Shown here: positions 6,468 through 32,000 of the stretch, piece by piece
Layout of the letters: each line of letters opens with the position of its first letter
Position numbering within the stretch: the stretch's first letter is position 1
NCBI GenBank assembly: GCA_963704435.1
Contig: OY969902.1
Coordinates: forward strand, 300,001-332,000
Source of the DNA: an uncultured archaeon
GTDB lineage: Archaea > Micrarchaeota > Micrarchaeia > Micrarchaeales > CABMGC01
DNA: 32,000 nucleotides
Reading direction: 5' to 3'
The notes under the pieces: model-generated
The model's database searches: none
Seen by the model: the letters and a program-made list of their open reading frames with translations, nothing else
What the model was told of the DNA's origin: nothing
Made by a program: the position numbers and the translations under genes

Positions 6468-6545
6468 GGGCTCGTAGCTCAGCCTGGTCAGAGCGGCGGT
6501 CTTATAAGCCGTAGGTCGTGAGTTCAAATCTCACCGGGCCCACCA
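6468..6545 (+). tRNA. tRNA-Ile, anticodon UAU, genomically encoded 3' CCA
   Basis: Hand-folded cloverleaf. Acceptor GGGCTCG/CGGGCCC; D arm GCTC/GAGC; anticodon stem GCGGT/GCCGT with loop CTTATAA (anticodon TAT); T arm GTGAG-TTCAAAT-CTCAC; discriminator A followed by CCA. Confidence 0.85.
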
Positions 6546-11634: not shown

Positions 11635-11664
11635 TTGCGCAATGTGTGCTGGCTACGCGCTAGG

Positions 11665-11775
11665 CTACTTGTACACCGACTCGGTGAGCTTGTCCGCGTA
11701 GTCGAGGGCGCCGCCAAGACCTATCTTCGGCAGCGGTATGAACACGAGGTTGTCTTCGACGGAGTTGCAGCTCAC
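11665..11775 (-). CDS. possible 36-aa micro-ORF coupled to dph6
   Basis: Manual translation gives (GTG)SCNSVEDNLVFIPLPKIGLGGALDYADKLTESVYK*. Its GTG overlaps the dph6 TGA as GTGA. There is no homology basis. Confidence 0.2.
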   Translation of the reverse strand: MSCNSVEDNLVFIPLPKIGLGGALDYADKLTESVYK

Positions 11776-12440
11776 TTGTCCTCAAGCATGGCATCCTCTA
11801 TGGTGTAGGTTCCTCTCCCATTCGAGAACGCCGTCTCCGATTTTTCGACCACTATCCTTTTCCTGAACAGCGGCGCGTCCAGCACGAACGTCTCCGCCTC
11901 TCCTCCTTCGAAGAGCGGGTTTATTCCATACGTCCTGCTCAGCTCCATCACCCTTTCCGCCATCTTCCTGTCTATTCTCTTACCAAGGAAAGTACTGTCA
12001 AGGCCTTCCGCGGACACTGCAGTCATTATTACTTCGTAGTTGTCCGCGAGCTCGTTGAGCTCAGAGATCGGCTCTATGTGCCAGAGGGGCGCCATATGCT
12101 CTATGCCGAGCCTTCTCGTCATCGCGTTTATGCGGTCTCCCTGATATCTGCTGTACGTAGCGCCAGTCACCAGCAGTTTTACCTCGTTGCCCACAAGCGC
12201 CTGCTCAAGATCCGCCAGCTCCTTCTCCTTCTCTCCTTTGGTGTTTGCTAAGACGTGCTTTATTCCCAGCGCCTCCGCCTGCAGCCTCGTATATTCGACG
12301 TTGGGATAATGGAACATGTAGCTCTCCTTGTTCGCAGATCTCATCGTTATCAAGAGATCTATCCTTATCCCGGCCGCGACCGCTTTATGGAGCGCGAGCG
12401 TGGAATCCTTGCCTCCGCTGAAAAGGCACGCGTTGGTCAT
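11772..12440 (-). CDS. dph6: diphthine--ammonia ligase / MJ0570-type PP-loop ATPase (diphthamide synthase)
   Basis: 222 aa with the PP-loop 'LFSGGKDST' and 'FEGGEAETFVLDAPLF', typical of the Dph6 N-terminal domain family. Confidence 0.8.
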   Translation of the reverse strand: MTNACLFSGGKDSTLALHKAVAAGIRIDLLITMRSANKESYMFHYPNVEYTRLQAEALGIKHVLANTKGEKEKELADLEQALVGNEVKLLVTGATYSRYQGDRINAMTRRLGIEHMAPLWHIEPISELNELADNYEVIMTAVSAEGLDSTFLGKRIDRKMAERVMELSRTYGINPLFEGGEAETFVLDAPLFRKRIVVEKSETAFSNGRGTYTIEDAMLEDK

Positions 12441-12542
12441 CGTTTCTTCCTCCTATTGAATGAATTGAGTACGCTTTTATAACCTATTTTATCAATAATA
12501 AATACTTAACAGAGAACAATTTGGACAAAAACCCGTGAACGC

Positions 12543-14240
12543 ATGTACATCCTTGGTTTGTGGGACGGTCATGATGCAGGCGCAGCCCTGCTTGAGGACG
12601 ACAGGATAGTCTTCGCTGCCAACGAGGAACGGTACACCAAGCGCAAGCTTGAGATAAAGTTCCCCTACAATTCGATAACTGCCGCGCTGTCCTATGCGGG
12701 CATAAAGCCTAGCGATGTAGAGACCGTCGCGTTCCCGACGACCGAGTTCGCGAAGACCCTCTCGCGAGTCCTTCCGTACCAGCAGGAGGCATACTACCAG
12801 TTCAGGAGAAGGAAGATGCTCAAGCCCAGGGGAGAGTCGGCAAGGCGCTTCCTGAAGTATGCGCAGACCGGAGTGGGCACGCTTCCCCTCTGCGGCACGG
12901 TGAGCAAGGCAGCGATATCCCGGCACCTCAGGAGCATTGGCTTCGGCAAATTCAAGCTTCACGGCGTTGACCATCACGAGTCGCACGCCGCCACTGCCGC
13001 CTTCACATCAGGATTCGACAAGGCGCTGGTCATCACCATCGACGGATTGGGGGATGGAGTGAGCGCATCCGTGAGCGTGCTCGACGGCGGAAAGCTCGAG
13101 AGGCAGCACTCGGTCAGCGCGAGGAACTCCATAGGCGTGTTCTTCGAGCAGGTCACCAACATCGTAGGCATGCGCGAGCTCGAGGACGAGGGCAAGGTCA
13201 TGGCGATGGCCTGTTACTCCTACCCCTTCCCGTTCGAGGAGAACAGGCTCAAGGACTTCTTCAGCGTGGAGGGGCTCGACATACGCGCGAAGTACGGGCC
13301 GAACGGCCAGTATGACGCGCTGAGCAGGATCGCGTGGTCGATGCCGAGGGAGCAGTTCTCCTACATGGCGCAGCAGCTCCTGGAGCGCGTGCTCGTCGAT
13401 TTCTTCACGAACGCCATCGAGCGGTTCGGCATCGGGAACGTGGCAATGGCTGGCGGAACGCTCTCGAACGTCAAGGCTAATATGCAGGTGAGGAACATCG
13501 AAGGGCTTAAGAGGTGGTTCATATTCCCGCACATGGGAGACGGAGGCATAGCTCTCGGAGCCGCGATGCACGTGAACCACGAGCTCAATGGGACCGGCGC
13601 ATACGAATTCAAGGACTCATACTTGGGGGACGGGTTCAGCGAGGGCTATGTCGAGGGGCTGCTCAGGAAGGAGAAGGGAATAAGGTTCGAGAGGGACGCA
13701 GACAGCAGCGCCCACGCCGCGGAGCTCATAAGCGGGGACGATTACGTCTTCTGGTTCCAGGGAAGGATGGAGTACGGGCCGCGAGCTCTAGGCAACAGGA
13801 GCATACTGGCGAAGGCGGGATCGGAGAGCGTGAAGGACAAGCTAAACACGTACGTCAAGCAGAGGGAATGGTACCAGCCGTTCGCGCCATCGATGCTGGA
13901 GGAAGAGTCTACCCGGTTGCTGGATGACATAAAGGGCAGCGACCGCTTCATGACCATGGCCTACAAGGTGAAAAAGGGCGCCGAGGGACTGATGAGGTCG
14001 GTAATCCACGTGGACGGCACCGCGAGGCCGCAGATGGTCGGCACCGAGAATCCGAATTATCGCGAGCTCCTGAGGAGGCTTGCGCAGCTCGATGGATACG
14101 GCATGGCGCTGAACACCAGCTTCAACATACATGGCATGCCGATAGTCAGGAGCCCGGAGGATGCGCTCGATACGATGAGGAAGACGAAGACGAGGCACAT
14201 GTTCCTCAACGGATTCTACGTTGAGAACACGGAGGCGTGA
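12543..14240 (+). CDS. carbamoyltransferase, NodU/CmcH/TobZ family
   Basis: 565 aa. It has 'ILGLWDGHDAGAALLEDDRIVFAANEERYTKRK', 'HHESHAATAAF', and a C-terminal 'HVDGTARPQ...NTSFN' YrdC/Kae1-like carbamoyltransferase signature. Confidence 0.85.
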   Translation: MYILGLWDGHDAGAALLEDDRIVFAANEERYTKRKLEIKFPYNSITAALSYAGIKPSDVETVAFPTTEFAKTLSRVLPYQQEAYYQFRRRKMLKPRGESARRFLKYAQTGVGTLPLCGTVSKAAISRHLRSIGFGKFKLHGVDHHESHAATAAFTSGFDKALVITIDGLGDGVSASVSVLDGGKLERQHSVSARNSIGVFFEQVTNIVGMRELEDEGKVMAMACYSYPFPFEENRLKDFFSVEGLDIRAKYGPNGQYDALSRIAWSMPREQFSYMAQQLLERVLVDFFTNAIERFGIGNVAMAGGTLSNVKANMQVRNIEGLKRWFIFPHMGDGGIALGAAMHVNHELNGTGAYEFKDSYLGDGFSEGYVEGLLRKEKGIRFERDADSSAHAAELISGDDYVFWFQGRMEYGPRALGNRSILAKAGSESVKDKLNTYVKQREWYQPFAPSMLEEESTRLLDDIKGSDRFMTMAYKVKKGAEGLMRSVIHVDGTARPQMVGTENPNYRELLRRLAQLDGYGMALNTSFNIHGMPIVRSPEDALDTMRKTKTRHMFLNGFYVENTEA

Positions 14241-20815: not shown

Positions 20816-22612
20816 ATGGGACGGCCCGCCAGTCTCACCATAAAGATTAAGATGCTACTCGTGCAAAGACACCATAGGGAGAAGATGAGGCGCTTCGGGT
20901 TTGAGATATACATACAGAAAGCGAAGCCCGGCGACACAAGTTGGAAGAATTTTATCAACACCGTATTCGATTACGACAGGGAATTCACGATAGAAGCGGA
21001 ATTTCTTGCGAGCGACGTCAACCTATATCTCTACTCAAACAGGGACCTGTCGAATCTGGCAACGAAGATACTTCCATTCATCCTCAAACCCATCAAGATT
21101 GCGCAGAAGCAGGAGGCATCCCCGCGCAAAATTAGACCGAGGCCGTACTTTTTCCTGCTGCCGGGCAACAAGAACCTGCTGGAGATAAAGGAGCATCAGA
21201 AAATCAAGAATGGCCTGGATCTTAAGAGCGTCGTCTGGCATTTCAGGTCGTTTTTCAGAGTGAAGGTAAACACCATGACCTTCATGTTCGAGGATGGAGA
21301 AGACGGACTGAGGACGGCCAAGAAGTATGCGCTGGGAATACCCTTCCGCCTGCTTGAGCAGATAGACTGGTCCAAGGCCGTCAAGTACAAAAAGAAGGAA
21401 ATGCCCGCATACCTCAACATCGAAAATGAATCCGATCTGTTCGTGCAAGGAAAGTCGGAAAGCATTTTGGAGGTCGATGGGTTCCCATACCTGAACGCGC
21501 AGAGCTACCTGTCGCTCAGGGGCTTCGATTTCGAAAAGCATACCCTGATACTGGGGCAGACTGGGGTCGGAAAATCAAAGCTCATAACCCTTCTTGTGAA
21601 AAGCATGGAGAGGCTTCAGTCAAAGGACAAGTATGCGGTAGTCGTGATAGACCCCCACGCCTCATTGTTCTCTGACTTCGGTGGAGTGAAGGGCGCCGTG
21701 AGCCTGGACTTCGTAAAGTCCTACTGCGACCTGTTCGTCAAGGGCGCGGACCCTAAGATGGCTACCGAGCTTACGCTGCTCCTGTTCAAGACCCTGCTGA
21801 AGGACCAGTTCAATCCCAGGCTCGAGCGCGTGCTGAAGTACTCCTCGTTCTCCCTGATCTCGGCGGGCGCGATGTCGCTCAACAACATGAGGAAGTTCCT
21901 TTCGGAAATCGAGTATCGAAAGGACATACTGGACAAGCTGCCTGACGAGGACGCTACGGCGCACTTCTTCGACACGGACTTCATAGAAGCGCAAACGCAG
22001 TTCTATGACACCGCGATAATGCCCATACTCTCCCTTATCGACGAGCTCAACCTGCTTCCTGTGTTCAAGGAGGGCAGATCCCTGAAGGACGTGATAAGCG
22101 ACAACTTCCTCACGGTGTTCTCCCTTTCGAGGATATCCCTCGGGGACAGGGCCTCAAGGCTCATCGCCGGGCTGCTGATACAGCAGCTGTTCCTGATGGC
22201 GCAGGGCGGGATGCTCCGCAAGAAGGTAATCCTGGTGATAGACGAGGTGCCTATGGTGGAGAACGACGCCATGATAGCCATACTCTCCGAATCCAGGAAG
22301 TTCGGCATGTCGCTGTTCCTCTCCATGCAGTTCCTGGATCAGATAAGCGCGCCGCTGCAGAAGGCGATCCTTTCGAACGTCTACAACTATTTCGTATTCA
22401 AGACCGACGAGAAAGACGCAGAGACGCTCGGAAAGAACCTGTACCTCGACATACCCTCCGAGGTGATGGAGGCGGCGAAGGAGAGGGGCGAGAGCAAGGA
22501 TGACATAAAGAAGAGGCTGTTCACGACGCTCAACGCGAGGGAGTGCATCGTGAGGGTGTACTCGAACGGCAAATACTACCACTGCTTCAGGGCAAAGACT
22601 CTCGAATCGTGA
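20816..22612 (+). CDS. HerA/FtsK-superfamily P-loop NTPase (DUF87-like) with uncharacterised 270-aa N-terminal region
   Basis: The ATG at 20816 lies 8 nt after the archease stop codon. It has Walker A 'ILGQTGVGKSKL', 'VVVIDPHASLF', Walker B 'VILVIDEVPMV' and 'SESRKFGMSLFLSMQF'. Confidence 0.7.
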   Translation: MGRPASLTIKIKMLLVQRHHREKMRRFGFEIYIQKAKPGDTSWKNFINTVFDYDREFTIEAEFLASDVNLYLYSNRDLSNLATKILPFILKPIKIAQKQEASPRKIRPRPYFFLLPGNKNLLEIKEHQKIKNGLDLKSVVWHFRSFFRVKVNTMTFMFEDGEDGLRTAKKYALGIPFRLLEQIDWSKAVKYKKKEMPAYLNIENESDLFVQGKSESILEVDGFPYLNAQSYLSLRGFDFEKHTLILGQTGVGKSKLITLLVKSMERLQSKDKYAVVVIDPHASLFSDFGGVKGAVSLDFVKSYCDLFVKGADPKMATELTLLLFKTLLKDQFNPRLERVLKYSSFSLISAGAMSLNNMRKFLSEIEYRKDILDKLPDEDATAHFFDTDFIEAQTQFYDTAIMPILSLIDELNLLPVFKEGRSLKDVISDNFLTVFSLSRISLGDRASRLIAGLLIQQLFLMAQGGMLRKKVILVIDEVPMVENDAMIAILSESRKFGMSLFLSMQFLDQISAPLQKAILSNVYNYFVFKTDEKDAETLGKNLYLDIPSEVMEAAKERGESKDDIKKRLFTTLNARECIVRVYSNGKYYHCFRAKTLES

Positions 22613-22617
22613 TCCGC

Positions 22618-23355
22618 ATGGACGAGAACAAGGCGAAGCAGATCACCGATTACGTGTTCAAGGACGTCTTCGGGGTCGGAAACCCCTTCTCCCTCGAGGA
22701 GATAAGGAAGAGGTTCGCGTTCGACATCGAGCTCCCGAAGAAAGCGAGGGGCGCGTTCACCGAAGAGGACGTCTGGACCATCTCTGAGACAAAGGACAGG
22801 GTTATAGGGCGGAAGGCCCTCATGGCGCGGATGAAGAAGGACGAATGGATGCTGGAGAAAAAGCCCATAGGTTCGGTGGAGGAACTGCTGGGCCGCTGGA
22901 GCGAGATAAACTACATGCAGGGGGAGCGCTATGAGGACTCCACGGAAGTAGCGGAATCGGATAACGTCTACCACAGCACGTCCGTGTATAGGAGCACGGA
23001 GACGCTCCACTCGCAGAACATCGTATTCTCAAATACAAATTTCGGATGCAGCTACCTCGTCGCCAGTTCGGACAACTCGAAGTGCATCCTGGGCGTGAGG
23101 ATGCGCAAGAGCGTATTCTGCTCCTCGGGATTCGAGATCTCGGGATCGGACAAGGTATCTAAGAGCATGTATATACGCGGATGCACGGACCTGTATGAAT
23201 GCATGTTCTGCTCGCAGCTCAGGTCGAAGAGGTACTGCATAGCGAACATGCAGTTCGAGAAGGGCGAGTACCTCAGGATAAAGGACATGCTGGTTAAGTG
23301 GACCCTGGAGAACTTCGACGCAAAGCTGAAATCGAAGCTGGGCTTGAGCCGATAG
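22618..23355 (+). CDS. hypothetical protein with C-terminal Cys-ladder repeat region
   Basis: The ATG lies 5 nt after the ATPase stop codon. The C-terminal half has roughly 11-12-aa periodic segments ending in 'CTDLYECMFCSQLRSKRYCIANMQFEKGEY'. I cannot name a family. Confidence 0.55.
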   Translation: MDENKAKQITDYVFKDVFGVGNPFSLEEIRKRFAFDIELPKKARGAFTEEDVWTISETKDRVIGRKALMARMKKDEWMLEKKPIGSVEELLGRWSEINYMQGERYEDSTEVAESDNVYHSTSVYRSTETLHSQNIVFSNTNFGCSYLVASSDNSKCILGVRMRKSVFCSSGFEISGSDKVSKSMYIRGCTDLYECMFCSQLRSKRYCIANMQFEKGEYLRIKDMLVKWTLENFDAKLKSKLGLSR

Positions 23356-23480
23356 CGCTGATTTCCGCACAAAATTAAAAAGCCAGGGAAGGGCTGAGGC
23401 AGTTAAGCTTACCCTTTTCTTGGGTAGGCTCATAGGATGACCCTAAAGGTATTAATACGAGTAAATTATTAAGAGTTGGC

Positions 23481-23699
23481 ATGGAACTTTGGAAGAAAAG
23501 GCAGCACCACAACGTTGCCAGGGACACCACCCGGGTTATGAAGCTCGGCAACGCCCAGCTTCTCATCACGATACCGGCGGAGATCGCCAGGTGGAAGAAG
23601 ATCGGCAAGGGTACGCTGCTGAAGTGGTCCGATGCGGGGCAGGACCGCGTACTCGTGGAGGTAAAAGAAGAAACAGTCAGCGAGCTCGCTGGATATTAG
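23481..23699 (+). CDS. AbrB/SpoVT-type (swapped-hairpin) DNA-binding protein
   Basis: 72 aa. 'VMKLGNAQLLITIPAEIARWKKIGKGTLLKWSDAGQDRVLVEV' fits the AbrB/MazE looped-hinge pattern. A TATA-like 'tattaata' lies about 30 nt upstream. Confidence 0.6.
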   Translation: MELWKKRQHHNVARDTTRVMKLGNAQLLITIPAEIARWKKIGKGTLLKWSDAGQDRVLVEVKEETVSELAGY

Positions 23700-23827
23700 T
23701 TGCGGCATTTTCGACGACAAAATGAACTTTCAGACGACAAACCCCCGCCATTATAAATAATATATCGGATATTCACTGGCTACGGTTTGCAGTTTCAGCT
23801 CCGCATTGCGTGCGAGGGTGACGCGCA

Positions 23828-24016
23828 TCACGTTACGTGCCTCATCGGTTGGTCCTCGGGTTCGCCGAGGAGACGGCGGAGCTCCTTAACCCTCGCGAGT
23901 ATGACTGCACTCGGTTCCTTTATGGTCCGCTCCGTGAACTCCCGAAAGTATTCCCTCGACAGCTCCGCAATCCTTAGCCTGATAGCCTCGACGTTTATTT
24001 GCTTTGTTTCTTCCAT
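23828..24016 (-). CDS. hypothetical small helical protein (last gene of the minus-strand block)
   Basis: 62-aa ORF with charged, helical composition, tightly following the upstream micro-ORFs. Confidence 0.4.
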   Translation of the reverse strand: MEETKQINVEAIRLRIAELSREYFREFTERTIKEPSAVILARVKELRRLLGEPEDQPMRHVT

Positions 24017-24249
24017 GTTTTCACCTAATCGTCACCGAGGAGCAGCAAAAGCAGTTCCAGCTCCTCCTCACTCAGCCCTTCCATGCCAGTCTCCTCTTGC
24101 GGGACCGGCGGCAGTTCCTTCTTCTTCCAGGGCCAACCCACTATAACACCCCTGCCATTCGCTTATAAGATGCTTTACAGGTCGCGCACAGGCTCAAAGT
24201 GGCAGTTACACCCATATCCACCTCAGTTGCGAGACCCCTGAACCCCATT

Positions 24250-24684
24250 TTAAGCACCTATTCGCTTATTCCGCTCCAAAGCCATAGTTTCGAGCCACCT
24301 TTTGCGCGATTCTTCCTTATCTTTGAGGTATTTCACCCTCTCCGGCTCGGGCATGGCCGCGAGCTTCGCGTCCTCGCGCAGCTCACGATCCTGCAAGCCC
24401 TTGTTTGGCAGTAATGCCTGCTGCTCAGGTGTGAGGGCCCTGTAAAATGCCTCCCTGAGTTCGCGGGGGACGTGGCAGGTGCGCTGTGGGTCACCTGGAA
24501 GTCCGCGCCGCTGCACTATGAGCCTGCCATCCACGTCCTTATCATAGGTGGCAAAGCAGAGCGGACATTCGTTTGCCGCGCACCTGTGGAACGACCTGCA
24601 CCCGTACTCTTTGGTAAGTTGCGGCGTGCCTGGCGGCGCACTGTCAGGTCCGCATATAAGCTGGTTCTCATTCGTCTTTTTCAT
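24250..24684 (-). CDS. hypothetical Cys-rich (zinc-finger-like) protein
   Basis: 144 aa with an N-terminal 'C..(19)..C....H.C...ECPLC' cluster and a charged helical C-terminus. It overlaps the upstream ORF by 17 nt. Confidence 0.5.
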   Translation of the reverse strand: MKKTNENQLICGPDSAPPGTPQLTKEYGCRSFHRCAANECPLCFATYDKDVDGRLIVQRRGLPGDPQRTCHVPRELREAFYRALTPEQQALLPNKGLQDRELREDAKLAAMPEPERVKYLKDKEESRKRWLETMALERNKRIGA

Positions 24685-24856
24685 GGTTATCCCTCTTGAA
24701 CAGGTAGTAGTTCAGCAGGCCCCACGCCAGCGCCGCCTCCGAACTCGCAAAGCTGAGGAGCTGCATGATAGTCAGGTTTATATCCTCCATGCTGGTCCTC
24801 GGTCTCCTTTCGTAGTTCTTCGGCACGTCTTTGGCAGGATAGGTTGGTTCGCACAT
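24668..24856 (-). CDS. hypothetical small protein with one hydrophobic helix
   Basis: 62-aa ORF in the same tightly packed block. Confidence 0.4.
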   Translation of the reverse strand: MCEPTYPAKDVPKNYERRPRTSMEDINLTIMQLLSFASSEAALAWGLLNYYLFKRDNHEKDE

Positions 24857-24862
24857 GGTAAT

Positions 24863-25009
24863 TCACCCCTTCTTATCGCGCATTATCTTTATCGCATCCT
24901 CGAAGCTGTGCGGTCCATGATGGTTGCGCTCATAATGGCAGCGCAGCAGCAGGGTCCGACCTTCGCCTCTTGGCAAAGTCACGGAAACATTACAGGTTTT
25001 CTTATCCAT
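24863..25009 (-). CDS. possible 48-aa micro-ORF
   Basis: Manual translation gives MDKKTCNVSVTLPRGEGRTLLLRCHYERNHHGPHSFEDAIKIMRDKKG*. Its ATG lies 2 nt after the stop of the 663-aa gene. It ends 6 nt before the next ATG. Confidence 0.3.
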   Translation of the reverse strand: MDKKTCNVSVTLPRGEGRTLLLRCHYERNHHGPHSFEDAIKIMRDKKG

Positions 25010-25011
25010 AG

Positions 25012-27003
25012 TCATACCTCAGCGTCCTTATTCTCCTGCCTGAAGATCGCGGTAGCGCGTATATCGTCAGGTTTGCCCGGAACCTCCTCGACTTCCCCTC
25101 CGAATACCATGAAGTTGCACAGGATCGGGCGCCAGGACTCGGGAGCGAACAGGAATTTAGGGTAACGACCTACCTTTATGCCCTCCGGGTGGGCCAGGAG
25201 CGCAGCCTTAACCTCTTTTAGAGGTGTTATAGGCATTATAGTGGTAGGTATGGCAGGTTTGGTGGCTTCTACACTCTCTTTATTATTTTCGTTCTCGCTA
25301 CATGGGGGGTGGCTCGGAGGTGCCTGACCTACCAAACCCACCAATGTTACCCTTTTATCTTCCATATTTTTGGTCCACTTATACTGGTTCCGGTTAGGGT
25401 GGTCCTTAGCCTCGACCACTTCCATTCTTATTCCTGAAAGAACCCTGATGTTTTTGTATTTATCGAGGAACCTGCTGAATTTCAGCCATGCTTTGCCTTC
25501 GTCTTTGCTCCAGTCCAGCCAACCGAACAGGCCGGAGAAGTCGCTCTCGGCGTCCATGAACTCGCTCTTTATATCTTTTTTGTTTATCCAGTTCTCTCCC
25601 CACTTCGCATAGGCTAATTCAAAGAGCACTTTCATCTCCCGCGTCTCGCGGTCACCGCCCATAGCGTCCGAAGTGTCGTTTGGCTTGCACGGGCTCCCAT
25701 AACCGGCGGCCTCCATTATCCCGCCCGCTACCCGCGCCCATTCGTGGTAGCTGGTGAACGGGACGTTGCCAGGCCTCATGCCAGTCTCGCACCAGTTCCT
25801 TACCAGCGCATACAGGGCGCTCAGTATGTCACCCCTGTTCTCCGCGATCCATTCGTGCAGGTTCGGGGTCTCGAACTTCCGGTCATTCGGGTCCTCCTCG
25901 CCGAATTGCAGATTGACGAACACGCACCGCGCCGCCAGGTCAGGGGTGTACGTTATCCCTGTGTTTGCCGACATGGAGAGCTCCAAAGTGTTCGGGTACG
26001 TCAGCATGGTGTTGCTCCCGAGCTGCCTGTCGGTTATCACCTCGGCAGTCGCGGCCCTTTCGAGTTCTGCGCTGTTGATATAACCCTTGTTGTTGCTCGA
26101 ATGTATGCGGCCCCTCCCGCTTTTGAGTGTCGAGAGCACTTTCTTCCTGAACTCGTCGTCATGCGTCTCCCTCTCGCTCGATATTGCGGGGTCCTCTATG
26201 GCCGCGCCCTCGAACACTATGCCAGGTATTCCAGCGCAGTAGTCTTTGCCCGACCTCTCCCTATTCGCCTTAAAGAAGAATATGGGCGTCCTGGAAGTCT
26301 CGCTCTTATAGAGGCCTCTGCAAAACTGCGTAAGCAGCCCAGCAATGGCATTGGCGCGGTCCTGCTCGGCCACGAAACAGAACTCGCGGTATATCCTGCC
26401 TATCAGTGCCTTCGCGTCCTCCAGCTTCATGTCGGTCCTGATCTCCGGCGCGTCCAGAGGCAGCCAGGAGCGAAGCCCTGGGTCATAGCCCTTTTGCGGG
26501 AACGCGAGTTTGCCGTCTTTAAGCAGCGGCATAGGCACGCTGTATATCCTCTCTATCGCGGGGAGGTTGGCCCTGAACTGGGCCTCGCTCGCCAGCGTAA
26601 CCTCCGCGTTGTTCGGGGATAGGCTTTTAGTCACGAAATAGTTGCTCAGCCTCTCATGCTTCTCTATGCCGACGGTAAAATGCTCCTCGATCAAAGTTAT
26701 GAGCTCTGTGCTCTTTACCGGCTGGAATACCAGCACCTTCTTATCCTTCCGCTCACCTACCGCCTGCATTGCGAGCCTGACGACCTGGCGCTCATTTGGT
26801 TTGTAAAAAAGCACCTTCTTATCGCTGAAATACATGCCTAATTCAGTTGCAAACTCTCCGTTAGGCCTGCCTTCTCCTGGGAGCAGCAGTTCCTTTTTGG
26901 CCGCCTTCGCCGCCATGTATTCCGTTGCGGCAGTGACAGGATCGCGCCCGGCAGCCATTGCGTCGGCGACGCGCTTTTCAAGGAGCTTATCTTCGCTCAT
27001 CAT
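25012..27003 (-). CDS. large putative replication-associated protein with SF3 (D5/P4-type) helicase-like layout and atypical P-loop
   Basis: 663 aa. The central region reads 'FFFKANRERSGKDYCAG ... ELERAATAEVITDRQLGSNTMLTYPNTLELSMSANTGITYTPDLAARCVFVNLQF ... ILSALYALVRNW'. This follows the order of Walker A-like, B, motif C (..N) and Arg-finger regions of primase-helicases, but with non-canonical residues. Confidence 0.35.
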   Translation of the reverse strand: MMSEDKLLEKRVADAMAAGRDPVTAATEYMAAKAAKKELLLPGEGRPNGEFATELGMYFSDKKVLFYKPNERQVVRLAMQAVGERKDKKVLVFQPVKSTELITLIEEHFTVGIEKHERLSNYFVTKSLSPNNAEVTLASEAQFRANLPAIERIYSVPMPLLKDGKLAFPQKGYDPGLRSWLPLDAPEIRTDMKLEDAKALIGRIYREFCFVAEQDRANAIAGLLTQFCRGLYKSETSRTPIFFFKANRERSGKDYCAGIPGIVFEGAAIEDPAISSERETHDDEFRKKVLSTLKSGRGRIHSSNNKGYINSAELERAATAEVITDRQLGSNTMLTYPNTLELSMSANTGITYTPDLAARCVFVNLQFGEEDPNDRKFETPNLHEWIAENRGDILSALYALVRNWCETGMRPGNVPFTSYHEWARVAGGIMEAAGYGSPCKPNDTSDAMGGDRETREMKVLFELAYAKWGENWINKKDIKSEFMDAESDFSGLFGWLDWSKDEGKAWLKFSRFLDKYKNIRVLSGIRMEVVEAKDHPNRNQYKWTKNMEDKRVTLVGLVGQAPPSHPPCSENENNKESVEATKPAIPTTIMPITPLKEVKAALLAHPEGIKVGRYPKFLFAPESWRPILCNFMVFGGEVEEVPGKPDDIRATAIFRQENKDAEV

Positions 27004-27188
27004 GCCACCCTCGAAGTCTCGGAGATTCGATCAATGCTGGCCCAACCGATAAGCTCCTCTTTGCCGTTGAAATAGCGCAGCACGATATAGTTCGGCTCGA
27101 TTTTAAGCAGCGTGCCGAACCGCTTATATCCGTCCTTCTGCACCACAAGGACGTTTCTGCCTAACAATTCGTTTTCTCCCATTGCCAC
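27000..27188 (-). CDS. small beta-rich protein, possibly Sm-like fold
   Basis: 62 aa. 'GRNVLVVQKDGYKRFGTLLKIEPNYIVLRY...IGWASIDRI' resembles the Sm1/Sm2 spacing. It has an ATGA overlap with the downstream gene. Confidence 0.35.
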   Translation of the reverse strand: MAMGENELLGRNVLVVQKDGYKRFGTLLKIEPNYIVLRYFNGKEELIGWASIDRISETSRVA

Positions 27189-27208
27189 TACCTCGTTTAA
27201 TCATTCGC

Positions 27209-27343
27209 CTATCTCCTGTACCTGAACCCCGTATATCTGAACTGGTGGCCCGTGACCGTCGAGGTGGCTATCCCGTTCTCGTCTATGGTGAACGGCACCC
27301 TCCGCCTTATCACGGGATCGAAAGCAGTGATATATCTCGCCAT
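27209..27343 (-). CDS. possible 44-aa micro-ORF
   Basis: Manual translation gives MARYITAFDPVIRRRVPFTIDENGIATSTVTGHQFRYTGFRYRR*. Its ATG shares one nucleotide with the upstream TGA. Confidence 0.25.
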   Translation of the reverse strand: MARYITAFDPVIRRRVPFTIDENGIATSTVTGHQFRYTGFRYRR

Positions 27344-27504
27344 CAACTCACCACAAAGCGAACCTCCAACCGCATGGAGCCGGGTAGCAACTTACTGAAC
27401 TTCTTGCACTTGCACCCCTTCACGAAGCAGGCACCCCTGCCAACGCGCCCAAACCCGAAGGTGTGGACGTGCTCCTTCGCATCATGTCCGCATCCGCATT
27501 TCAT
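27343..27504 (-). CDS. possible 53-aa zinc-binding micro-protein
   Basis: Manual translation gives MKCGCGHDAKEHVHTFGFGRVGRGACFVKGCKCKKFSKLLPGSMRLEVRFVVS*. It has a 'CGCGH...EH...C...GCKC' pattern and an ATGA overlap with the upstream gene. Confidence 0.35.
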   Translation of the reverse strand: MKCGCGHDAKEHVHTFGFGRVGRGACFVKGCKCKKFSKLLPGSMRLEVRFVVS

Positions 27505-27770
27505 GCCTTCACCCTCAAAGTATCCTGCTGCTCCAACGCCTTCAGGAGCTCCGCCTTCTTTACGAATAGCTGTCTCTGCAACTGCCTGAGCTCCCCAGCG
27601 AACCTCGGGTCGCTCAGGCCCAGCGCGTACAGCCTTATCTTCTCTATCAGCGCGTACAGCTCAGAGAAGGTCGTGCCTATTGCCTGCCCCTGCCTGTCGG
27701 TCTCGATAGTCCTCTCTATCTCCGCCTCCATGCCCCTGAGTCTTATCATTTCGGTCTTCAGCTCATCCAT
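27501..27770 (-). CDS. hypothetical coiled-coil protein
   Basis: 89 aa with a heptad-like charged composition. It overlaps the upstream gene by 8 nt. Confidence 0.45.
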   Translation of the reverse strand: MDELKTEMIRLRGMEAEIERTIETDRQGQAIGTTFSELYALIEKIRLYALGLSDPRFAGELRQLQRQLFVKKAELLKALEQQDTLRVKA

Positions 27771-28209
27771 GCTTATCCCTCATTAAAAGCGCATGCTTAT
27801 CCCTCATTAAAAGCGCGAATGATGCAATGAGAACAGCGAGATAGGCCAGATAGCCATACATGAACGGCACGGATTGACTATCCTGCACAGGCAGCGATTC
27901 GTTGCTGACTATCTCGGCCCACCACTGCGAGTACGCAGCAGGGTCTGAGGCTTCGAGCGCGGCCAGTTGAGTCACGTTCTCCGAGGTCGTCGAGATCGAG
28001 TACCCGACCAGCGGGGCGGGTGCTTTGTAGGTTAGTGGCAGGTGCAGCGCTATCGTTCCAGTCAGCCCAAACTGCGCGTCTATCGCTCTGTTTATGGTCT
28101 CGTGGTAGTATGCCCCGGCATATACCGCGAAATAAAACCCCAGTACCGCCAGCAGAACGAGCGCTGCCATGCCCTCACATAGCTTCTTTTCAAAGGTGTC
28201 CATTTCCAT
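27763..28209 (-). CDS. hypothetical membrane protein (N- and C-terminal TM helices)
   Basis: 148 aa with TM segments 'GMAALVLLAVLGFYFAVYAGAYY' and 'YGYLAYLAVLIASFALL' flanking an extracytoplasmic loop. The C-terminus carries the duplicated octapeptide. Confidence 0.5.
   Translation of the reverse strand: MEMDTFEKKLCEGMAALVLLAVLGFYFAVYAGAYYHETINRAIDAQFGLTGTIALHLPLTYKAPAPLVGYSISTTSENVTQLAALEASDPAAYSQWWAEIVSNESLPVQDSQSVPFMYGYLAYLAVLIASFALLMRDKHALLMRDKHG
27768..27815. repeat. perfect 24-bp tandem duplication (2 copies)
   Basis: The sequence 'catgcttatccctcattaaaagcg' occurs at 27768-27791 and again at 27792-27815. It encodes the 'ALLMRDKH' x2 tail of the 148-aa protein. One copy contains the ATG of the next gene. 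Confidence 0.95.
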
Positions 28210-28229
28210 TACCTCAAATCAAATATTCC

Positions 28230-28904
28230 CTATAAAGACCTGAAAAATTCCAATATCGCATTTATCAGCGCGGTCAATCCCGCATAGCTGAAGGTCGGTG
28301 GCTGCGAGGACGGTGCTGACTGCGATCCTGCCGGTATCGTGGTGGTGACTGGAGGGATGTATGCCTGAACGCTGCCTATAAAGTAGTCTATCCTGGTGTC
28401 CGGGTGGTAAATCGCGGTGTAGTTATCTATCAGCACCGCCACCTCCCCGCTCTGGCCTGTGAGAGGGTTCGCGGTGTCGTTCAGCGTCGCATATATGGTG
28501 ACGTATGGGTTTGCCGTTGTCGGCCCCGCGTATTGCGGCAGCATGGCAGTTATATACTGCACCGGCACGCAGTAGTCCACTATCGTCTGGTAAGTGGTCG
28601 CCGTCCCGCTCAGAGCGGTCACTACCTGCTGGTTCGGTATGCCTATCTCCCCGAGCTGGCCGGTTTGGTTCCCATTGCGCCAGAAAGTAAGCACATAGTT
28701 GGAGGGGTTGCCGTTGAACGCCGCGCCTTGTACTATGATGGTGCTGCCCGGGTTCGTTATCCCGTCGAGGGTACCCTGGCAACCGCTCTGGCCGAACTGG
28801 AAGCCGTTGTATATGTTTTTGCCGAACCCCCCGAATGTCCAGGCGGCCAGCAGGCTCGCTATAACCAGGAGGAATATCAGCAATGCGAAGATTCTGCCGT
28901 TCAT
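28230..28904 (-). CDS. secreted/anchored protein (candidate structural protein of the element)
   Basis: 224 aa with an N-terminal signal/anchor 'IFALLIFLLVIASLLAAWTFGG', a Gly/Asn/Thr/Gln-rich beta-type composition and several sequons. It has an ATGA overlap with the upstream gene. Confidence 0.55.
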   Translation of the reverse strand: MNGRIFALLIFLLVIASLLAAWTFGGFGKNIYNGFQFGQSGCQGTLDGITNPGSTIIVQGAAFNGNPSNYVLTFWRNGNQTGQLGEIGIPNQQVVTALSGTATTYQTIVDYCVPVQYITAMLPQYAGPTTANPYVTIYATLNDTANPLTGQSGEVAVLIDNYTAIYHPDTRIDYFIGSVQAYIPPVTTTIPAGSQSAPSSQPPTFSYAGLTALINAILEFFRSL

Positions 28905-29158
28905 ATTATACCCGCGCTATAAAGCAGCATGAGGACCGCGACGGCCACGATGATTAGCCCTATTACCAGCAGTATTTTAGCGAGGCTGGCAACCACGACC
29001 AGCACAATTCCTATAAGCATCAGGCCCAGCGGCCCCGCATTCTGAATCGCCTGCACCGCATTGGTAGCGAACCATTGCTGCAAAGCCGAGGCTATGCCAG
29101 AGTTTATGCTCGTGGTGATGCTCGAAACAATATCAAACAGGGTAAGTATAGGCACCAT
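28901..29158 (-). CDS. small, highly hydrophobic membrane protein (candidate virion membrane/capsid protein)
   Basis: 85 aa with an amphipathic N-terminal helix. A 40-residue hydrophobic hairpin follows: 'GPLGLMLIGIVLVVVASLAKILLVIGLIIVAVAVLMLLY'. Confidence 0.5.
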   Translation of the reverse strand: MVPILTLFDIVSSITTSINSGIASALQQWFATNAVQAIQNAGPLGLMLIGIVLVVVASLAKILLVIGLIIVAVAVLMLLYSAGII

Positions 29159-29162
29159 ATTC

Positions 29163-30350
29163 TCACCCGCAGGCCACTATAAGGGTCCTCAGCCCCAGCC
29201 AAAGCACTACCTCAACGACCAGGGCCATAAAGGGCCACGCGAAGGCATAGAAGCGGTATTTGTTGCCCGGGCTGCCATAATACTGGACATAAAGGATAGT
29301 CGCAAGCAGGGCCATGACCATGCCGAATATCAGTGAATAAGGCAGCGTCACCGAATTGCCGTTTATCGTGAGCACCGACCCTGCGGTATAAGCGCTTACT
29401 AGATAGCCGTTGAATATGCTGGTGGCATTGCTTGAGCAGCTCGGCGCGGTGGTGTTCTTACTGGTGGCCGAGGTCGCGCTTACCGTTTGGGTTATGTTGC
29501 TGGCCGTCGTAGTTCCGCCGCCCGAGGGGGTCGAGTAGGAATAGCTGAACTGGTTGTTGCCGAGGGTATTGCTATAAAGACTGCCTGAAAGAGTATACTG
29601 CCCGTTCTTGATGTAACTCGCGGGGACCTGGACCAGCACATTGCCAGGGGTGTGCACTATCACCCCGTCAATGTTTATGGCATAGTCAGGAATAGCCTGC
29701 AAAATATTGGCAGTAACGAATGATAGGGTGCCGTTGGTGGAGGTATAATTGGCGTACTGATGCACACCCGCCGCCAGGTAGTTCCCCGCGAGCTTAACAT
29801 TGCCGTAAGTTGTGCTCTCTGTGACGTTGCCGACCAGCCCGATTATTATGGGGCTGTTGGCAGGAACGCCCATAGCGATAAGTTCGTTGGCCTGCTGCGC
29901 GTTCCACTTCGTAATATTCAGGTAGGTCCAGTATTTTATTATCGTGGTTCCCCCGAATACGGCGGTGCCGGGGTTGGCGTATCCCGCGCAATCGGAGGCG
30001 GCATAGGAGGAGGTGCAGGCGAGGTATTGGTCCCCCCTGCTGCTCTGCGTCGCTCCGAAGCCGGAGATGACTATGTTTCCCGAAGGCGCGACCATGTTGG
30101 AGACCACGACGGTAGTGACCCCGTTTGAGGTAGTAAACGGGATTATTCCGCCAGCGTAGGGCGACGCGGTGCAGTTGCCCTGGCCCCAGCAATACGGGTT
30201 GTAGGCACCTATCTGAAAGGAACCGCTGAGGCCTCCCGGAAGGCCGATTATGCTGAACGTAAGGCTGTTATTCGGTATGGTATTCGATCCGGCGGCCATG
30301 CCTGCCATGAGGAGCAGGGCCAGGATAAGGAACCGCCGCGAGATGTTCAT
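29163..30350 (-). CDS. secreted glycoprotein-like protein with Sec signal peptide and two C-terminal TM helices (candidate spike/adhesin)
   Basis: 395 aa with the signal 'RRFLILALLLMAGMAAGS', about 10 N-x-S/T sequons, paired Cys residues, a T/S-rich segment, and C-terminal TMs 'LIFGMVMALLATILYV' and 'FAWPFMALVVEVVLWLGL'. Confidence 0.6.
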   Translation of the reverse strand: MNISRRFLILALLLMAGMAAGSNTIPNNSLTFSIIGLPGGLSGSFQIGAYNPYCWGQGNCTASPYAGGIIPFTTSNGVTTVVVSNMVAPSGNIVISGFGATQSSRGDQYLACTSSYAASDCAGYANPGTAVFGGTTIIKYWTYLNITKWNAQQANELIAMGVPANSPIIIGLVGNVTESTTYGNVKLAGNYLAAGVHQYANYTSTNGTLSFVTANILQAIPDYAINIDGVIVHTPGNVLVQVPASYIKNGQYTLSGSLYSNTLGNNQFSYSYSTPSGGGTTTASNITQTVSATSATSKNTTAPSCSSNATSIFNGYLVSAYTAGSVLTINGNSVTLPYSLIFGMVMALLATILYVQYYGSPGNKYRFYAFAWPFMALVVEVVLWLGLRTLIVACG

Positions 30351-30679
30351 ACGCTCACCGCCAAAGTGCGGGCCCGCAGCTCCGCCGCCGCCTGCCGCAT
30401 TTTCAAGACTAATGGCCGCAACAAGGCCACGAGCTGGCTGTCCTTCACCAAGACCAGCGAGTTGCCCTCGCAGATTCCGACGAGGGAGCGTTCGCCATTG
30501 AGGGCCAGCTTATCCCGGAGCGTACAAGGGATATAGAGGAATAGAGCACCGTTCTTGCTTTCGACGCGGCAGAGATCGAGAGTCGGCCCTATCCCGAATC
30601 CTTTTAATAGGCGGGTGAGCCTTTCCTCATTAGCTGGACTGTTGGGGGCGTTTGCAGCGCCCTCCGATTCCTTTTTCAT
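30347..30679 (-). CDS. AbrB/SpoVT-like DNA-binding protein (second copy of this fold class in the element)
   Basis: 110 aa. 'ALFLYIPCTLRDKLALNGERSLVGICEGNSLVLVKD' fits the swapped-hairpin pattern. It has ATGA overlaps on both sides. Confidence 0.45.
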   Translation of the reverse strand: MKKESEGAANAPNSPANEERLTRLLKGFGIGPTLDLCRVESKNGALFLYIPCTLRDKLALNGERSLVGICEGNSLVLVKDSQLVALLRPLVLKMRQAAAELRARTLAVSV

Positions 30680-30960
30680 GGCGCTTTCACCTCATCGCTC
30701 TCCGACTTGGGCTGTTTCTTGACCAAAGCGCGGTACCACAGCAGAAGCTGCTCGGCGGGGGTTGGCTGGCCGGTCATCGAATTACCCCGAGGGCGTTGCC
30801 GAGCAAGAATCGAACCAATGAGGAACGCGATCGCTCTGTCTTTTTGGCTTCGGCATCCAGTCTTTTCTTCAATGCCGTCGACATTACGATAATTACGCGC
30901 TCTTCCTGTGCTTCTCGCATCCGACTCTCCTTTGTATGTCAGTATTATGTGCCGAAGCAT
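30676..30960 (-). CDS. hypothetical basic protein (first gene of the block)
   Basis: 94-aa ORF whose ATG directly abuts the AT-rich region. A TATA-like 'gtataattac' lies about 25-30 nt upstream on the minus strand. Confidence 0.35.
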   Translation of the reverse strand: MLRHIILTYKGESDARSTGRARNYRNVDGIEEKTGCRSQKDRAIAFLIGSILARQRPRGNSMTGQPTPAEQLLLWYRALVKKQPKSESDEVKAP

Positions 30961-31012
30961 ATATTAAAATAATAAAACCTAAGTAATTATACGACTATAA
31001 GAGGTAATTTAC
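30961..31012. promoter_or_regulatory. AT-rich divergent promoter region
   Basis: A 52-nt stretch of about 80% AT separates the minus-strand block from the plus-strand wHTH gene. An SD-like 'gaggt' (31001-31005) lies 7 nt before the TTG at 31013. Confidence 0.45.
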
Positions 31013-31990
31013 TTGTATAATTCAAAAGGCGCGAATCTGGCCAATGCATCGATATCGAGAATCTGCCTTGTGCTCCTATCCCATCTTGACGAACCGATAC
31101 CGATAAAGCAAATAACCGAAGAAGTCTACGCCGATGCTCGTACTGGCTACAGAGCAATGCCTAATCGAGAGAAAAATAAAGCAGGTCGCAAACGCAACTC
31201 AGGCGAATTCTTCAAAGCAAATTACCAGGAAGTTCACCAATGTTGTGCGGACCTAAAAAAGCAGGGGCTCATAGAAATAACCAAATCAGATAAAGATGGA
31301 AGGCAATCGCTCGTTAAGCTCAATCTGAAAGGCCTTCTCACAAAAATCTTCGGGCCAAGAACCAATAAAAAATCACTCGTTGTGCTAAATAAATCTCTAT
31401 CGCCTATTGAAGAATGGAACCACATAATTGCAAATATTAAAAGCGCCATACTTGGAACTAAATCTCTTATGAAAACGCGCTCTGATTATATCGCTGCAAT
31501 TAAAAAAAGCGGTGGGAGCGAATACGAACGAAATATTGCTTTGCCTGAGAAGGAAAAAGAAATGCAAAAATACGCTAAAGAGCTAACGCAAAAAGAACAA
31601 AGATTAAGGAGTATGCAAAACGATTTGGCAGAGGCAAAGGCCATAGGGAAGTCCTCTGCATTCAGTCTAAATGATTCCGAAATAAATTTTCTTTTGAAAA
31701 GACTTGACTGCACCAATTTGAAAAGAGAATTCAATTGGCTTAGAAAAGGAGGAATGCTTAATTACCTGAATGGCAATTCGAACATTATCAAAATTCTCGT
31801 TGCCGTAATTAAAAGATTAGACTTACCAGGTTCTTGCTATGGTGACTATCACATATCGCTCAAACTACTTGGAATTGACGGAACAGATACTGCGCCAATA
31901 ACTGAAAACGTTCTACTTTCCTTTATTTGGAAAAGTGGTCTTCCCGATGTCGTAGAATTTTACGATAAATTCTATTGGAAAGCGCGGTGA
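31013..31990 (+). CDS. winged-helix (MarR/TrmB-like) DNA-binding protein with long uncharacterised C-terminal region; low GC
   Basis: 325 aa with a TTG start preceded by an SD. 'ICLVLLSHLDEPIPIKQITEEV...VHQCCADLKKQGLIEITKSDKDGRQSLVKLN' has a wHTH-like layout. GC drops sharply relative to everything upstream. Confidence 0.55.
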   Translation: MYNSKGANLANASISRICLVLLSHLDEPIPIKQITEEVYADARTGYRAMPNREKNKAGRKRNSGEFFKANYQEVHQCCADLKKQGLIEITKSDKDGRQSLVKLNLKGLLTKIFGPRTNKKSLVVLNKSLSPIEEWNHIIANIKSAILGTKSLMKTRSDYIAAIKKSGGSEYERNIALPEKEKEMQKYAKELTQKEQRLRSMQNDLAEAKAIGKSSAFSLNDSEINFLLKRLDCTNLKREFNWLRKGGMLNYLNGNSNIIKILVAVIKRLDLPGSCYGDYHISLKLLGIDGTDTAPITENVLLSFIWKSGLPDVVEFYDKFYWKAR

Positions 31991-32000
31991 ATCATTTTTC

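Follow-up and report, generated by a model that had tools for sequence, protein, structure and literature searches.

A packed block of mostly ORFan genes at tRNA-Cys in a Micrarchaeota chromosome is very probably an integrated copy of a circular mobile element

The stretch of DNA analysed here, called the window, comprises 32,000 nucleotides of an uncultured archaeon (GenBank assembly GCA_963704435.1, contig OY969902.1, positions 300,001 to 332,000 of the forward strand). Its right part carries an unbroken run of 18 minus-strand open reading frames (ORFs), which extends from 30920 down to 23828 in the ORF table. The run is bordered on the left by a 13-bp copy of a tRNA gene end, and the last codons of an integrase gene lie at the right edge of the window. 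Very probably, the block is a mobile element of 9,908 bp, circular and self-replicating in its free form, that has integrated into the chromosome of its host, a member of the Micrarchaeota (DPANN archaea). The element spans from window position 23381 (the attL core) to about 33288 in window-equivalent numbering, ~1.3 kb past the window end; window 23381-32000 is its left 87%. An earlier interpretation made from the letters alone (the sequence-only reading) had proposed a probable integrated virus- or plasmid-like element, and this was borne out by the circular junctions, the empty sites and the 13-bp repeat at tRNA-Cys described below. The range that it had given, 23375-31012, was wrong. The features at the two borders are as follows.

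23381-23393, unstranded: attL core AGCCAGGGAAGGG, the left element border, in which 13 bp of the tRNA-Cys(GCA) 3' end are repeated
23383-23433, minus strand: int-N, the 17 N-terminal codons (MSLPKKRVSLTASALPW) of the integrase gene int, severed by integration and continuous with the 449-amino-acid (aa) ORF in metagenome contig L066
23392-23416, unstranded: putative core-binding site of the integrase, formed by the right arm of the inverted repeat in attP
23434-23480, unstranded: AT-rich divergent intergenic region of 47 bp between int and the gene for a 72-aa protein, with putative promoters as read from the sequence
31992-32000, minus strand: int-C, the last codons and stop of int; the remainder lies past the window and is supplied by contigs L004, L065 and L066

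The core AGCCAGGGAAGGG equals the 3' end of tRNA-Cys(GCA), discriminator base included; the tRNA was identified with ARAGORN in the 839-kb chromosome contig L068. Four att sites were aligned: attL in the window, attR in L004, attP in L066, and attB in L068, L070, L071 and L073-L075. The 13-bp core is the sole sequence common to them, and the flanks change exactly at the core edges. The attB site reads ...AAAATTAAAA / AGCCAGGGAAGGG / AGTTGAACCCC... and the attP site reads ...GACTGCGGT / AGCCAGGGAAGGG / CTGAGGCAG..., while attL (window 23381-23393) and attR (L004 2981-2993, with the core at window-equivalent 33289-33301) are the reciprocal hybrids of the two. The borders of the element are thus direct repeats equal to part of a tRNA gene, and tRNA-Cys is rebuilt at attR upon integration. 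In L066, where position 4081 corresponds to window 23381, attP contains an inverted repeat with 25-nt arms (4060-4084 and 4092-4116, 80% complementary). The arms are separated by a 7-nt spacer, AGGGAAG, which is the centre of the core. A core with such arms is the usual layout of a tyrosine-recombinase core site. Two Logan unitigs (L069 and L072) terminate exactly at the core, as expected of a graph branch at which lysogens and non-lysogens are mixed.

Contigs of the free form were found in metagenomes. The 9,837-bp contig L001 encodes the 663-aa replication protein (Rep663) identically and is circularly permuted in relation to the window, with its position 1 at window 28596 and its position 9837 at window 28597 (BLASTN, 99% identity). 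In the case of L066, the gene order is that of the gene for the secreted protein p395, the gene for a 110-aa protein, the regulator gene RHH48, the 325-aa gene (wHTH325), the intact gene for the integrase Int449 and the 72-aa gene, on to Rep. Since int and the 72-aa gene lie in one run, this contig crosses the circular attP junction. The 9,840-bp contig L065 lacks host flanks and its two ends are 7 nt apart across attP; the element ends are joined in L066 as well as in L001 and L065. L067 matches window 23364-29454 with 100% identity. L004 was retrieved via the right-edge gene at 31013-31990, and L065, L066 and L067 via the 72-aa protein. The empty-site contigs were retrieved by looking up the host gene directly left of the block (22618-23355, 245 aa). 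Six of them (L068, L070, L071, L073, L074 and L075) show the order p245 (this 245-aa gene), tRNA-Cys(GCA), CBS-domain gene, which means that the block is not fixed among related genomes. As public metagenomes hold both the free circle and empty chromosomal sites, we conclude that the element is still mobile.

The codon usage of the block, which the sequence-only reading had rightly described as host-like, is the one argument for an ordinary host operon, a fixed genomic island or an assembly chimera. The share of ATA among Ile codons is 63% in the element and 58% in the host, AGG dominates the Arg codons of both, and the GC content at third codon positions (GC3) is 0.69 in the element vs 0.795 in the host. 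The six empty sites, the contigs across the attP junction and the recurrence of attL and attR in independent Logan unitigs make this explanation hardly credible.

The integrase, Int449, belongs to the tyrosine recombinases; it has 449 aa, carries a Zn ribbon at its C-terminus and is encoded on the minus strand. Its catalytic domain matches Pfam Phage_integrase (PF00589, E=3.5e-24, 85.9 bits vs the 27.1-bit cut-off) and the PHROG_1 integrase family (3e-27), and the R...HxxR...Y residues are present in its translation. The stop codon of int is at 31992, and L004 continues the minus-strand tyrosine-recombinase ORF 1.3 kb beyond the window. The crossover core covers int codons 14-18 (MSLPKKRVSLTASALPW followed by LPQ...). 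Therefore, attP lies inside the int ORF and integration splits the gene, which is the SSV-type arrangement. After integration, the int promoter and 17 codons are located at attL, and the other 432 codons directly downstream of the tRNA at attR. The expectation that the element would continue past 32,000, with an integrase there, possibly split in the SSV manner, and with direct repeats matching the 23,356-23,480 region, proved right on each count: the integrase sits past the window end, its 17 codons lie at 23383-23433 and the repeat at 23381-23393. Excision would need Int from co-resident circles; alternatively, an N-terminally shortened Int could be produced via read-through from the tRNA. 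Among viral proteins, Int449 is nearest to the integrases of archaeal pleomorphic and tailed viruses (24-32% identity). A 134-aa ORF at 23029-23433 (minus strand) is spurious and consists of the 17 int codons followed by antisense read-through of the host 245-aa gene.

The largest gene of the leftward run encodes Rep663 and overlaps its upstream neighbour.

25012-27003, minus strand: Rep663, predicted D5-like superfamily 3 (SF3) helicase core with the unusual P-loop NRERSGKD and without a primase domain
27000-27188, minus strand: 62-aa protein, translationally coupled to Rep through a 4-nt overlap

Rep663 matched PHROG 10537 at 1e-29 and also PHROG 19930, 'DNA polymerase/primase'; the matched regions are the C-terminal parts of phage DNA polymerase/primase proteins. 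No match was obtained in Pfam or NCBIfam, nor among PDB sequences with either a single sequence or a profile. The AlphaFold model, with a predicted local distance difference test score (pLDDT) of 82.6, was compared by Foldseek with known structures. It has the SF3 helicase fold, with matches to the African swine fever virus (ASFV) PrimPol, poxvirus D5/E5, the SaPI5 primase-helicase and NrS-1 (E=1e-10 to 1e-7, probability 1.00) and to phage primase-helicases (E down to 1e-32). Judged by this model, Rep663 is predicted to be a D5-like SF3 helicase without its own primase. The label 'NTPase-like' in the sequence-only reading is thereby narrowed to a replication protein of the D5-like SF3 helicase kind. 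The protein has hundreds of homologues at 40-60% identity, many of them fused to an N-terminal PrimPol, zf-CHC2 or Toprim domain, and belongs to a large helicase family that lacks Pfam annotation and has an unusual P-loop. The canonical Walker A motif GxxxxGK[ST] is absent. The family-wide motif is NRE[RG][AS]GKD(Y), in which R248, G252 and K253 never vary and the conservation of D254 is 90% or more. At the place where Walker B is expected, HSSNNKG is invariant in the family. From these motifs, the site either would be a non-canonical type of NTPase site or would be inactive. The circle would replicate with Rep663, which, having no primase domain, would probably recruit the host primase.

In a profile scan of species-representative genomes, Rep homologues were found at 58 loci. 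Those in archaea all belong to DPANN lineages (Micrarchaeota at 56% identity, another archaeon at 62%, Nano-, Woese- and Aenigmatarchaeota), and many others are in metagenome-assembled genomes (MAGs) of Verrucomicrobiota and Lentisphaerota, at 33-45% identity. In eight archaeal loci, an integrase 24-30% identical to Int449 adjoins the Rep homologue, and pairs of integrase and Rep lie by tRNA genes in MAGs of Micrarchaeota, Woesearchaeota and Nanoarchaeota. The integrase directly follows a tRNA gene in L007 (Pro), L027 (Thr) and L009 (Arg). In the Nanoarchaeota MAG locus L009 (5042-14038), a ~9.0-kb element with a homologous integrase and Rep is marked by a 15-bp direct repeat, TTCCAGCAGGGGCAA, at the tRNA-Arg 3' end; it lacks a gene for a large secreted protein. 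The Micrarchaeota relative L007 encodes a 1151-aa secreted protein with 29 N-x-S/T sequons, 72- and 67-aa transmembrane (TM) proteins and a multi-TM protein. What the element shares with relatives is limited to Rep, the 62-aa protein upstream of Rep and part of the coiled-coil protein. This 62-aa protein (27000-27188) is the sole accessory gene conserved with Rep in the relative represented by L002 and L003, where a 40% identical ORF lies directly upstream of the Rep homologue. Single-protein scans of genome and viral (IMG/VR) contigs with the integrase and Rep, which match only near-identical 8-mers, did not find the element, and a Rep-profile search of IMG/VR gave two distant loci only.

Upstream of the Rep region, four adjacent genes encode membrane or secreted proteins.

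27763-28209, minus strand: p148, a 148-aa membrane protein with two hydrophobic segments (hydropathy scan) and no family match
28230-28904, minus strand: p224, 224 aa, with an N-terminal signal or anchor; a true ORFan
28901-29158, minus strand: p85, 85 aa, with a 49-residue hydrophobic hairpin and two TM helices; no PHROG or Pfam match
29163-30350, minus strand: p395, 395 aa and secreted; it has a signal peptide, two TM helices at the C-terminus and 10 N-x-S/T sequons

The description of the block as ORFan-rich holds for most products. In the case of p224, no relative outside the element was found among 5.8 billion clusters, the one match being its own frameshifted copy. Eight relatives of p395 were obtained among 1.84 billion representatives, and phage records gave no match. 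The p85 two-helix hairpin was compared with the VP1-like major capsid protein of Fuselloviridae and other spindle-shaped viruses, which has two hydrophobic helices; no PHROG or Pfam match and no core gene was found. The p395 gene has a hypervariable site at 29447-29454, where L001 and L066 carry a 2.1-kb insertion. The inserted form is Gly-rich and repeat-bearing (959 aa plus, about 1,050 aa). Logan unitig L067 stops exactly at this hot spot, and this end suggests that both p395 alleles coexist in ERR11594402. On a 59-kb contig (L077), a gene at 10001-13357 encodes a 1,118-aa protein that shares the N-terminal domain of p395 (43-46% identity); it lies in an unannotated block by tRNA-Thr with no Rep or integrase homologue detectable nearby, and the domain therefore also occurs outside the element family. 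The genomic context of another p395 homologue, P0261, was uninformative.

The four-gene module is the centre of the first explanation of the element's nature, a temperate virus (provirus). According to it, p395, p85, p224 and p148 would build a membrane-containing virion, in which p395 would act in receptor binding or fusion and the small hydrophobic proteins would be the major structural components. We give this explanation close to an even chance. It agrees with the adjacency of four membrane or secreted genes, one of which encodes a signal-peptide-bearing, C-anchored product with 10 sequons, and with the 2.1-kb repeat-rich insertion by which p395 differs between copies that are otherwise 99% identical. 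L007 carries an analogous secreted/TM module, and among viral integrases the closest (29-32% identity) come from archaeal pleomorphic viruses. Fuselloviruses are the classic case of a split int, which was also counted in favour of a virus. On the other side, searches with PHROG, Pfam and BLAST linked no product to any virion protein, including the pleolipovirus VP3, VP4 and NTPase, the near-identical 8-mer scans did not find the element in IMG/VR, and the relative L009 has no such module. Moreover, the single-sequence AlphaFold model of p395 is unusable (pLDDT 36).

The remaining features of the element are regulators and small genes.

23481-23699, plus strand: 72-aa small protein with the motif GNAQLLITIPAEIA, a putative regulator; the exact protein is on L065, L066 and L067
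23828-24016, minus strand: 62-aa ORFan, last gene of the leftward operon, on L001, L065, L066 and L067; no family match
24025-24257, minus strand: two doubtful 38-aa ORFs, called on no related contig, including L066 and L067; GC3 of the second is 0.54
24250-24684, minus strand: 144-aa Cys-rich ORFan with six Cys, a possible Zn binder; no significant family match
24668-24856, minus strand: 62-aa ORFan, called on related contigs; no family match
24863-25015, minus strand: 50-aa ORF with a 4-nt overlap onto the Rep gene; 48 aa on L066
27209-27346, minus strand: 45-aa ORF; 44 aa on L001 and L067
27343-27504, minus strand: 53-aa Cys/His-rich micro-protein with five Cys, a putative Zn binder, on L001 and L067
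27501-27770, minus strand: 89-aa predicted coiled-coil protein, a 44-aa stretch of which is 55% identical in relative L058
30347-30679, minus strand: 110-aa protein of unverified family, on L001, L004 and L066; no match in Pfam, PHROG, PADLOC or PDB
30676-30777, minus strand: 33-aa ORF between the RHH48 and 110-aa genes, with 4-nt overlaps on both sides, on L004 and L066
30774-30920, minus strand: RHH48, a 48-aa CopG/Arc-type ribbon-helix-helix (RHH) regulator (Pfam and PHROG), first gene of the operon
30921-31012, unstranded: AT-rich divergent region with an inferred control function and a TATA-like TTAATATA ~30 nt upstream of the RHH gene
31013-31990, plus strand: wHTH325, an AT-rich gene of 325 aa and part of the element, located between the RHH gene and int in L066

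The junctions in the minus-strand run comprise nine 4-nt overlaps of the ATGA type, other overlaps of 1, 8, 8 and 17 nt, and gaps of 4, 6, 8, 20 and 20 nt. The tight one-strand packing noted in the sequence-only reading therefore stands, except that the run starts at 30920, not 30960, and that 23481-23699 is on the plus strand. A 94-aa ORF from 30960 was rejected as the first gene in favour of the 48-aa CopG/RHH gene (30774-30920) followed by the 33-aa ORF, and independent gene calls on other contigs agree with this start of the operon. A promoter upstream of the CopG/RHH gene, in the AT-rich 30921-31012 region, would drive one long leftward operon in the order of regulators, the four-gene membrane/secreted module, small Zn and coiled-coil proteins, and Rep. 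A scan for bacterial promoters and terminators gave no enrichment; its models are bacterial and not applicable to archaea. No defence families were found in the element by PADLOC.

In RHH48, the RHH domain scored above the curated cut-offs: RHH_5 gave E=4e-8 (33.2 bits vs 26 bits) and RHH_1 gave E=3e-4 (21.3 vs 20.5 bits), and the PHROG Arc-like repressor family matched at 3e-5. The 72-aa and 110-aa proteins had been taken for two AbrB-type regulators, which Pfam, PHROG, PDB and BLASTP do not support. The AbrB/SpoVT identity was tested in five ways, with no Pfam match at E<=1 or E<=0.1, and was rejected; a motif-level resemblance alone remains. The 325-aa gene gave a weak winged-helix signal (MarR_2, E=0.001, below the Pfam cut-off). 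Its GC content of 0.39 and GC3 of 0.37 compare with 0.55 and 0.69 in the rest of the element, and this composition suggests a cargo or regulatory gene of recent acquisition.

L001 was considered as a plain excised form of the element. This was rejected, because it lacks int and wHTH325 and has a substitute joint of 370 bp, and hence is a distinct variant. The joint (L001 4984-5353) links window 23575/23576 to 30967/30968 and takes the place of int, the 325-aa gene and the part of the 72-aa gene that encodes the N-terminal half. Its coding sequence starts with an RHH-like N-terminus and passes in frame into the C-terminal half of the 72-aa protein, the N-terminal half of which is thereby replaced. 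Within the joint, the promoter-like box GTATGTGCCGAAGCATaTATTAAGG is duplicated in tandem. The breakpoint of the V3 variant at 30967/30968 falls inside the 30921-31012 region. L001 originates from ERZ25039481, the same sample as the empty-site chromosome contig L068.

An integrase-less circle, in a sample whose chromosome contig has an empty site, fits a second explanation, an integrative non-conjugative plasmid of the Sulfolobus pXZ1/pSSVi type. Such an element would form no virion, and its membrane module would alter the surface of the episymbiotic host. Small archaeal plasmids have as their core a CopG-type RHH protein and a helicase-type Rep, Streptomyces plasmids and other small plasmids carry distant homologues of Rep, and no viral hallmark gene was found. 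In addition, a groundwater study (bioRxiv 10.64898/2026.05.20.726742) scored as plasmids ~12-kb circular elements with a link to Micrarchaeota chromosomes, and we counted this in favour of a plasmid. However, no partition, toxin-antitoxin or mobilisation gene and no pRN-type prim-pol domain was found, and surface proteins of such variability more typically serve viruses in host recognition. We consider the plasmid a serious candidate, of somewhat lower probability than the virus. The small size, the integrase-less derivative and the lack of recognisable morphogenesis genes would also suit a satellite that relies on a helper virus for its spread, as pSSVx and pSSVi do on SSV. This is improbable, as the element has its own integrase, Rep and membrane module, no helper was identified and nothing ties it to another virus.

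The hypervariable glycoprotein-like gene and the small hydrophobic proteins encoded next to it make us lean slightly towards a temperate membrane-containing virus over an integrative plasmid. Several points weigh against our interpretation. The right border lies beyond the window and is known solely through other assemblies, made from the same sample or its sister samples. Taken alone, L065 may represent a unitig of the assembly graph instead of a closed circle. Searches of Pfam, NCBIfam, PHROG and PADLOC recognised no capsid, packaging ATPase, partition, toxin-antitoxin or conjugation gene. The P-loop NRERSGKD and the putative Walker B SSNN of Rep are non-canonical, so that, as read from these motifs, its ATPase activity is not assured. 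Expression, the replication origin and the excision route are inferred throughout. With the virus as the preferred explanation, we tentatively propose, as a possibility that falls short of even odds, that the element is the first Micrarchaeota provirus and the founder of a new virus family. Its virion would consist wholly of ORFan membrane proteins (p85, p148 and p224) and would use the hypervariable p395 for attachment, and it would be part of a wider, unrecognised DPANN group that pairs this integrase with an atypical D5-like helicase.

The DPANN archaeon that serves as host has a chromosome of about 0.85 Mb. Left of the block lie housekeeping genes for tryptophanyl-/tyrosyl-tRNA synthetase (TrpRS/TyrRS), Kae1, a Bud32-like kinase, SRP54, a diphthamide synthase, an agmatinase and an archease; SRP54 is 67-75% identical to proteins of Candidatus Micrarchaeota / Micrarchaeia. 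A HerA/FtsK/TraD-like ATPase (DUF87; 598 aa on related contigs) and the Cys-rich 245-aa protein form a conserved host pair by attB (20816-23355). The ATPase gave weak matches to PADLOC mad8 and HerA, and the pair could be a defence-type or DNA-translocation module. The HerA/TraD-like ATPase gene (20816-22612) and the 245-aa gene were rejected as element genes: both are present in every empty-site contig, hence they belong to the host. A tRNA-Ile with a UAU anticodon is encoded at 6468-6545, and ATA is the major Ile codon of the host (58%). This fits direct decoding of AUA, not the usual archaeal route via a modified-CAU tRNA.

Very little is known of the mobile elements of Micrarchaeota, which are ultra-small uncultured episymbionts. 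No provirus was reported in a 2026 survey that covered 1,356 genomes of this phylum (PMC13573593). In an acid-mine study, viral contigs were linked to Micrarchaeales and the DPANN viruses there were predicted to be largely lytic (PMC12647753). What is already known is SSV-type integration targeting tRNA genes and, as for Rep, the structural group of D5-like helicases in which it is placed, its P-loop being non-canonical. The host phylum, the nearly all-ORFan gene set and the full set of integrated, free and empty states are new, and an earlier description of the element family may exist. With an occupied site, an empty site, a free circle and exact att sites at hand, integration, host range and virus/plasmid status are directly testable, and the pair of integrase and Rep could serve as a marker for similar elements across DPANN.

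Compared with the D5-like primase-helicases (vaccinia D5 / MPXV E5, ASFV C962R, SaPI5 and NrS-1), Rep663 shares the overall helicase fold by Foldseek. It differs in a sequence identity of 10-13%, in having no Pfam match and in NRERSGKD in place of GxxxxGK[ST]; many of its homologues are fused to primase domains, whereas Rep663 itself lacks one. The pRN-family plasmids of Sulfolobales, with CopG, PlrA and the prim-pol/SF3-helicase RepA, are similar in the combination of a CopG-type RHH protein with a large Rep of SF3 fold. In contrast to them, Rep663 has no prim-pol domain and the element adds an integrase and a membrane module. The Pleolipoviridae, exemplified by Geoglobus acetivorans pleomorphic virus 1 (GacPV1, BK065156), resemble the element in genome size (7-17 kb) and in genes for a large anchored surface protein and small membrane proteins, and the GacPV1 integrase is 29% identical over 73% of the length. 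They differ in having a rolling-circle Rep, not a D5-like helicase; as for the VP3-like, VP4-like and VP8-like NTPase hallmarks, BLASTP against all GacPV1 proteins gave no credible match, and PHROG gave none. The SSV1-type fuselloviruses and the plasmids pXZ1, pSSVi and pTN3 differ in several respects: here the split is merely 17 codons from the int N-terminus, the integrase has 449 aa with a C-terminal Zn ribbon and is called SSV-type by its gene-splitting arrangement, the host is a DPANN archaeon and no fusellovirus core gene was detected in the element. The same systems share with it a small circular double-stranded DNA genome, an attP within the int ORF so that integration partitions int, a tRNA gene end that is the target and is rebuilt on integration, and integrated and episomal forms side by side.

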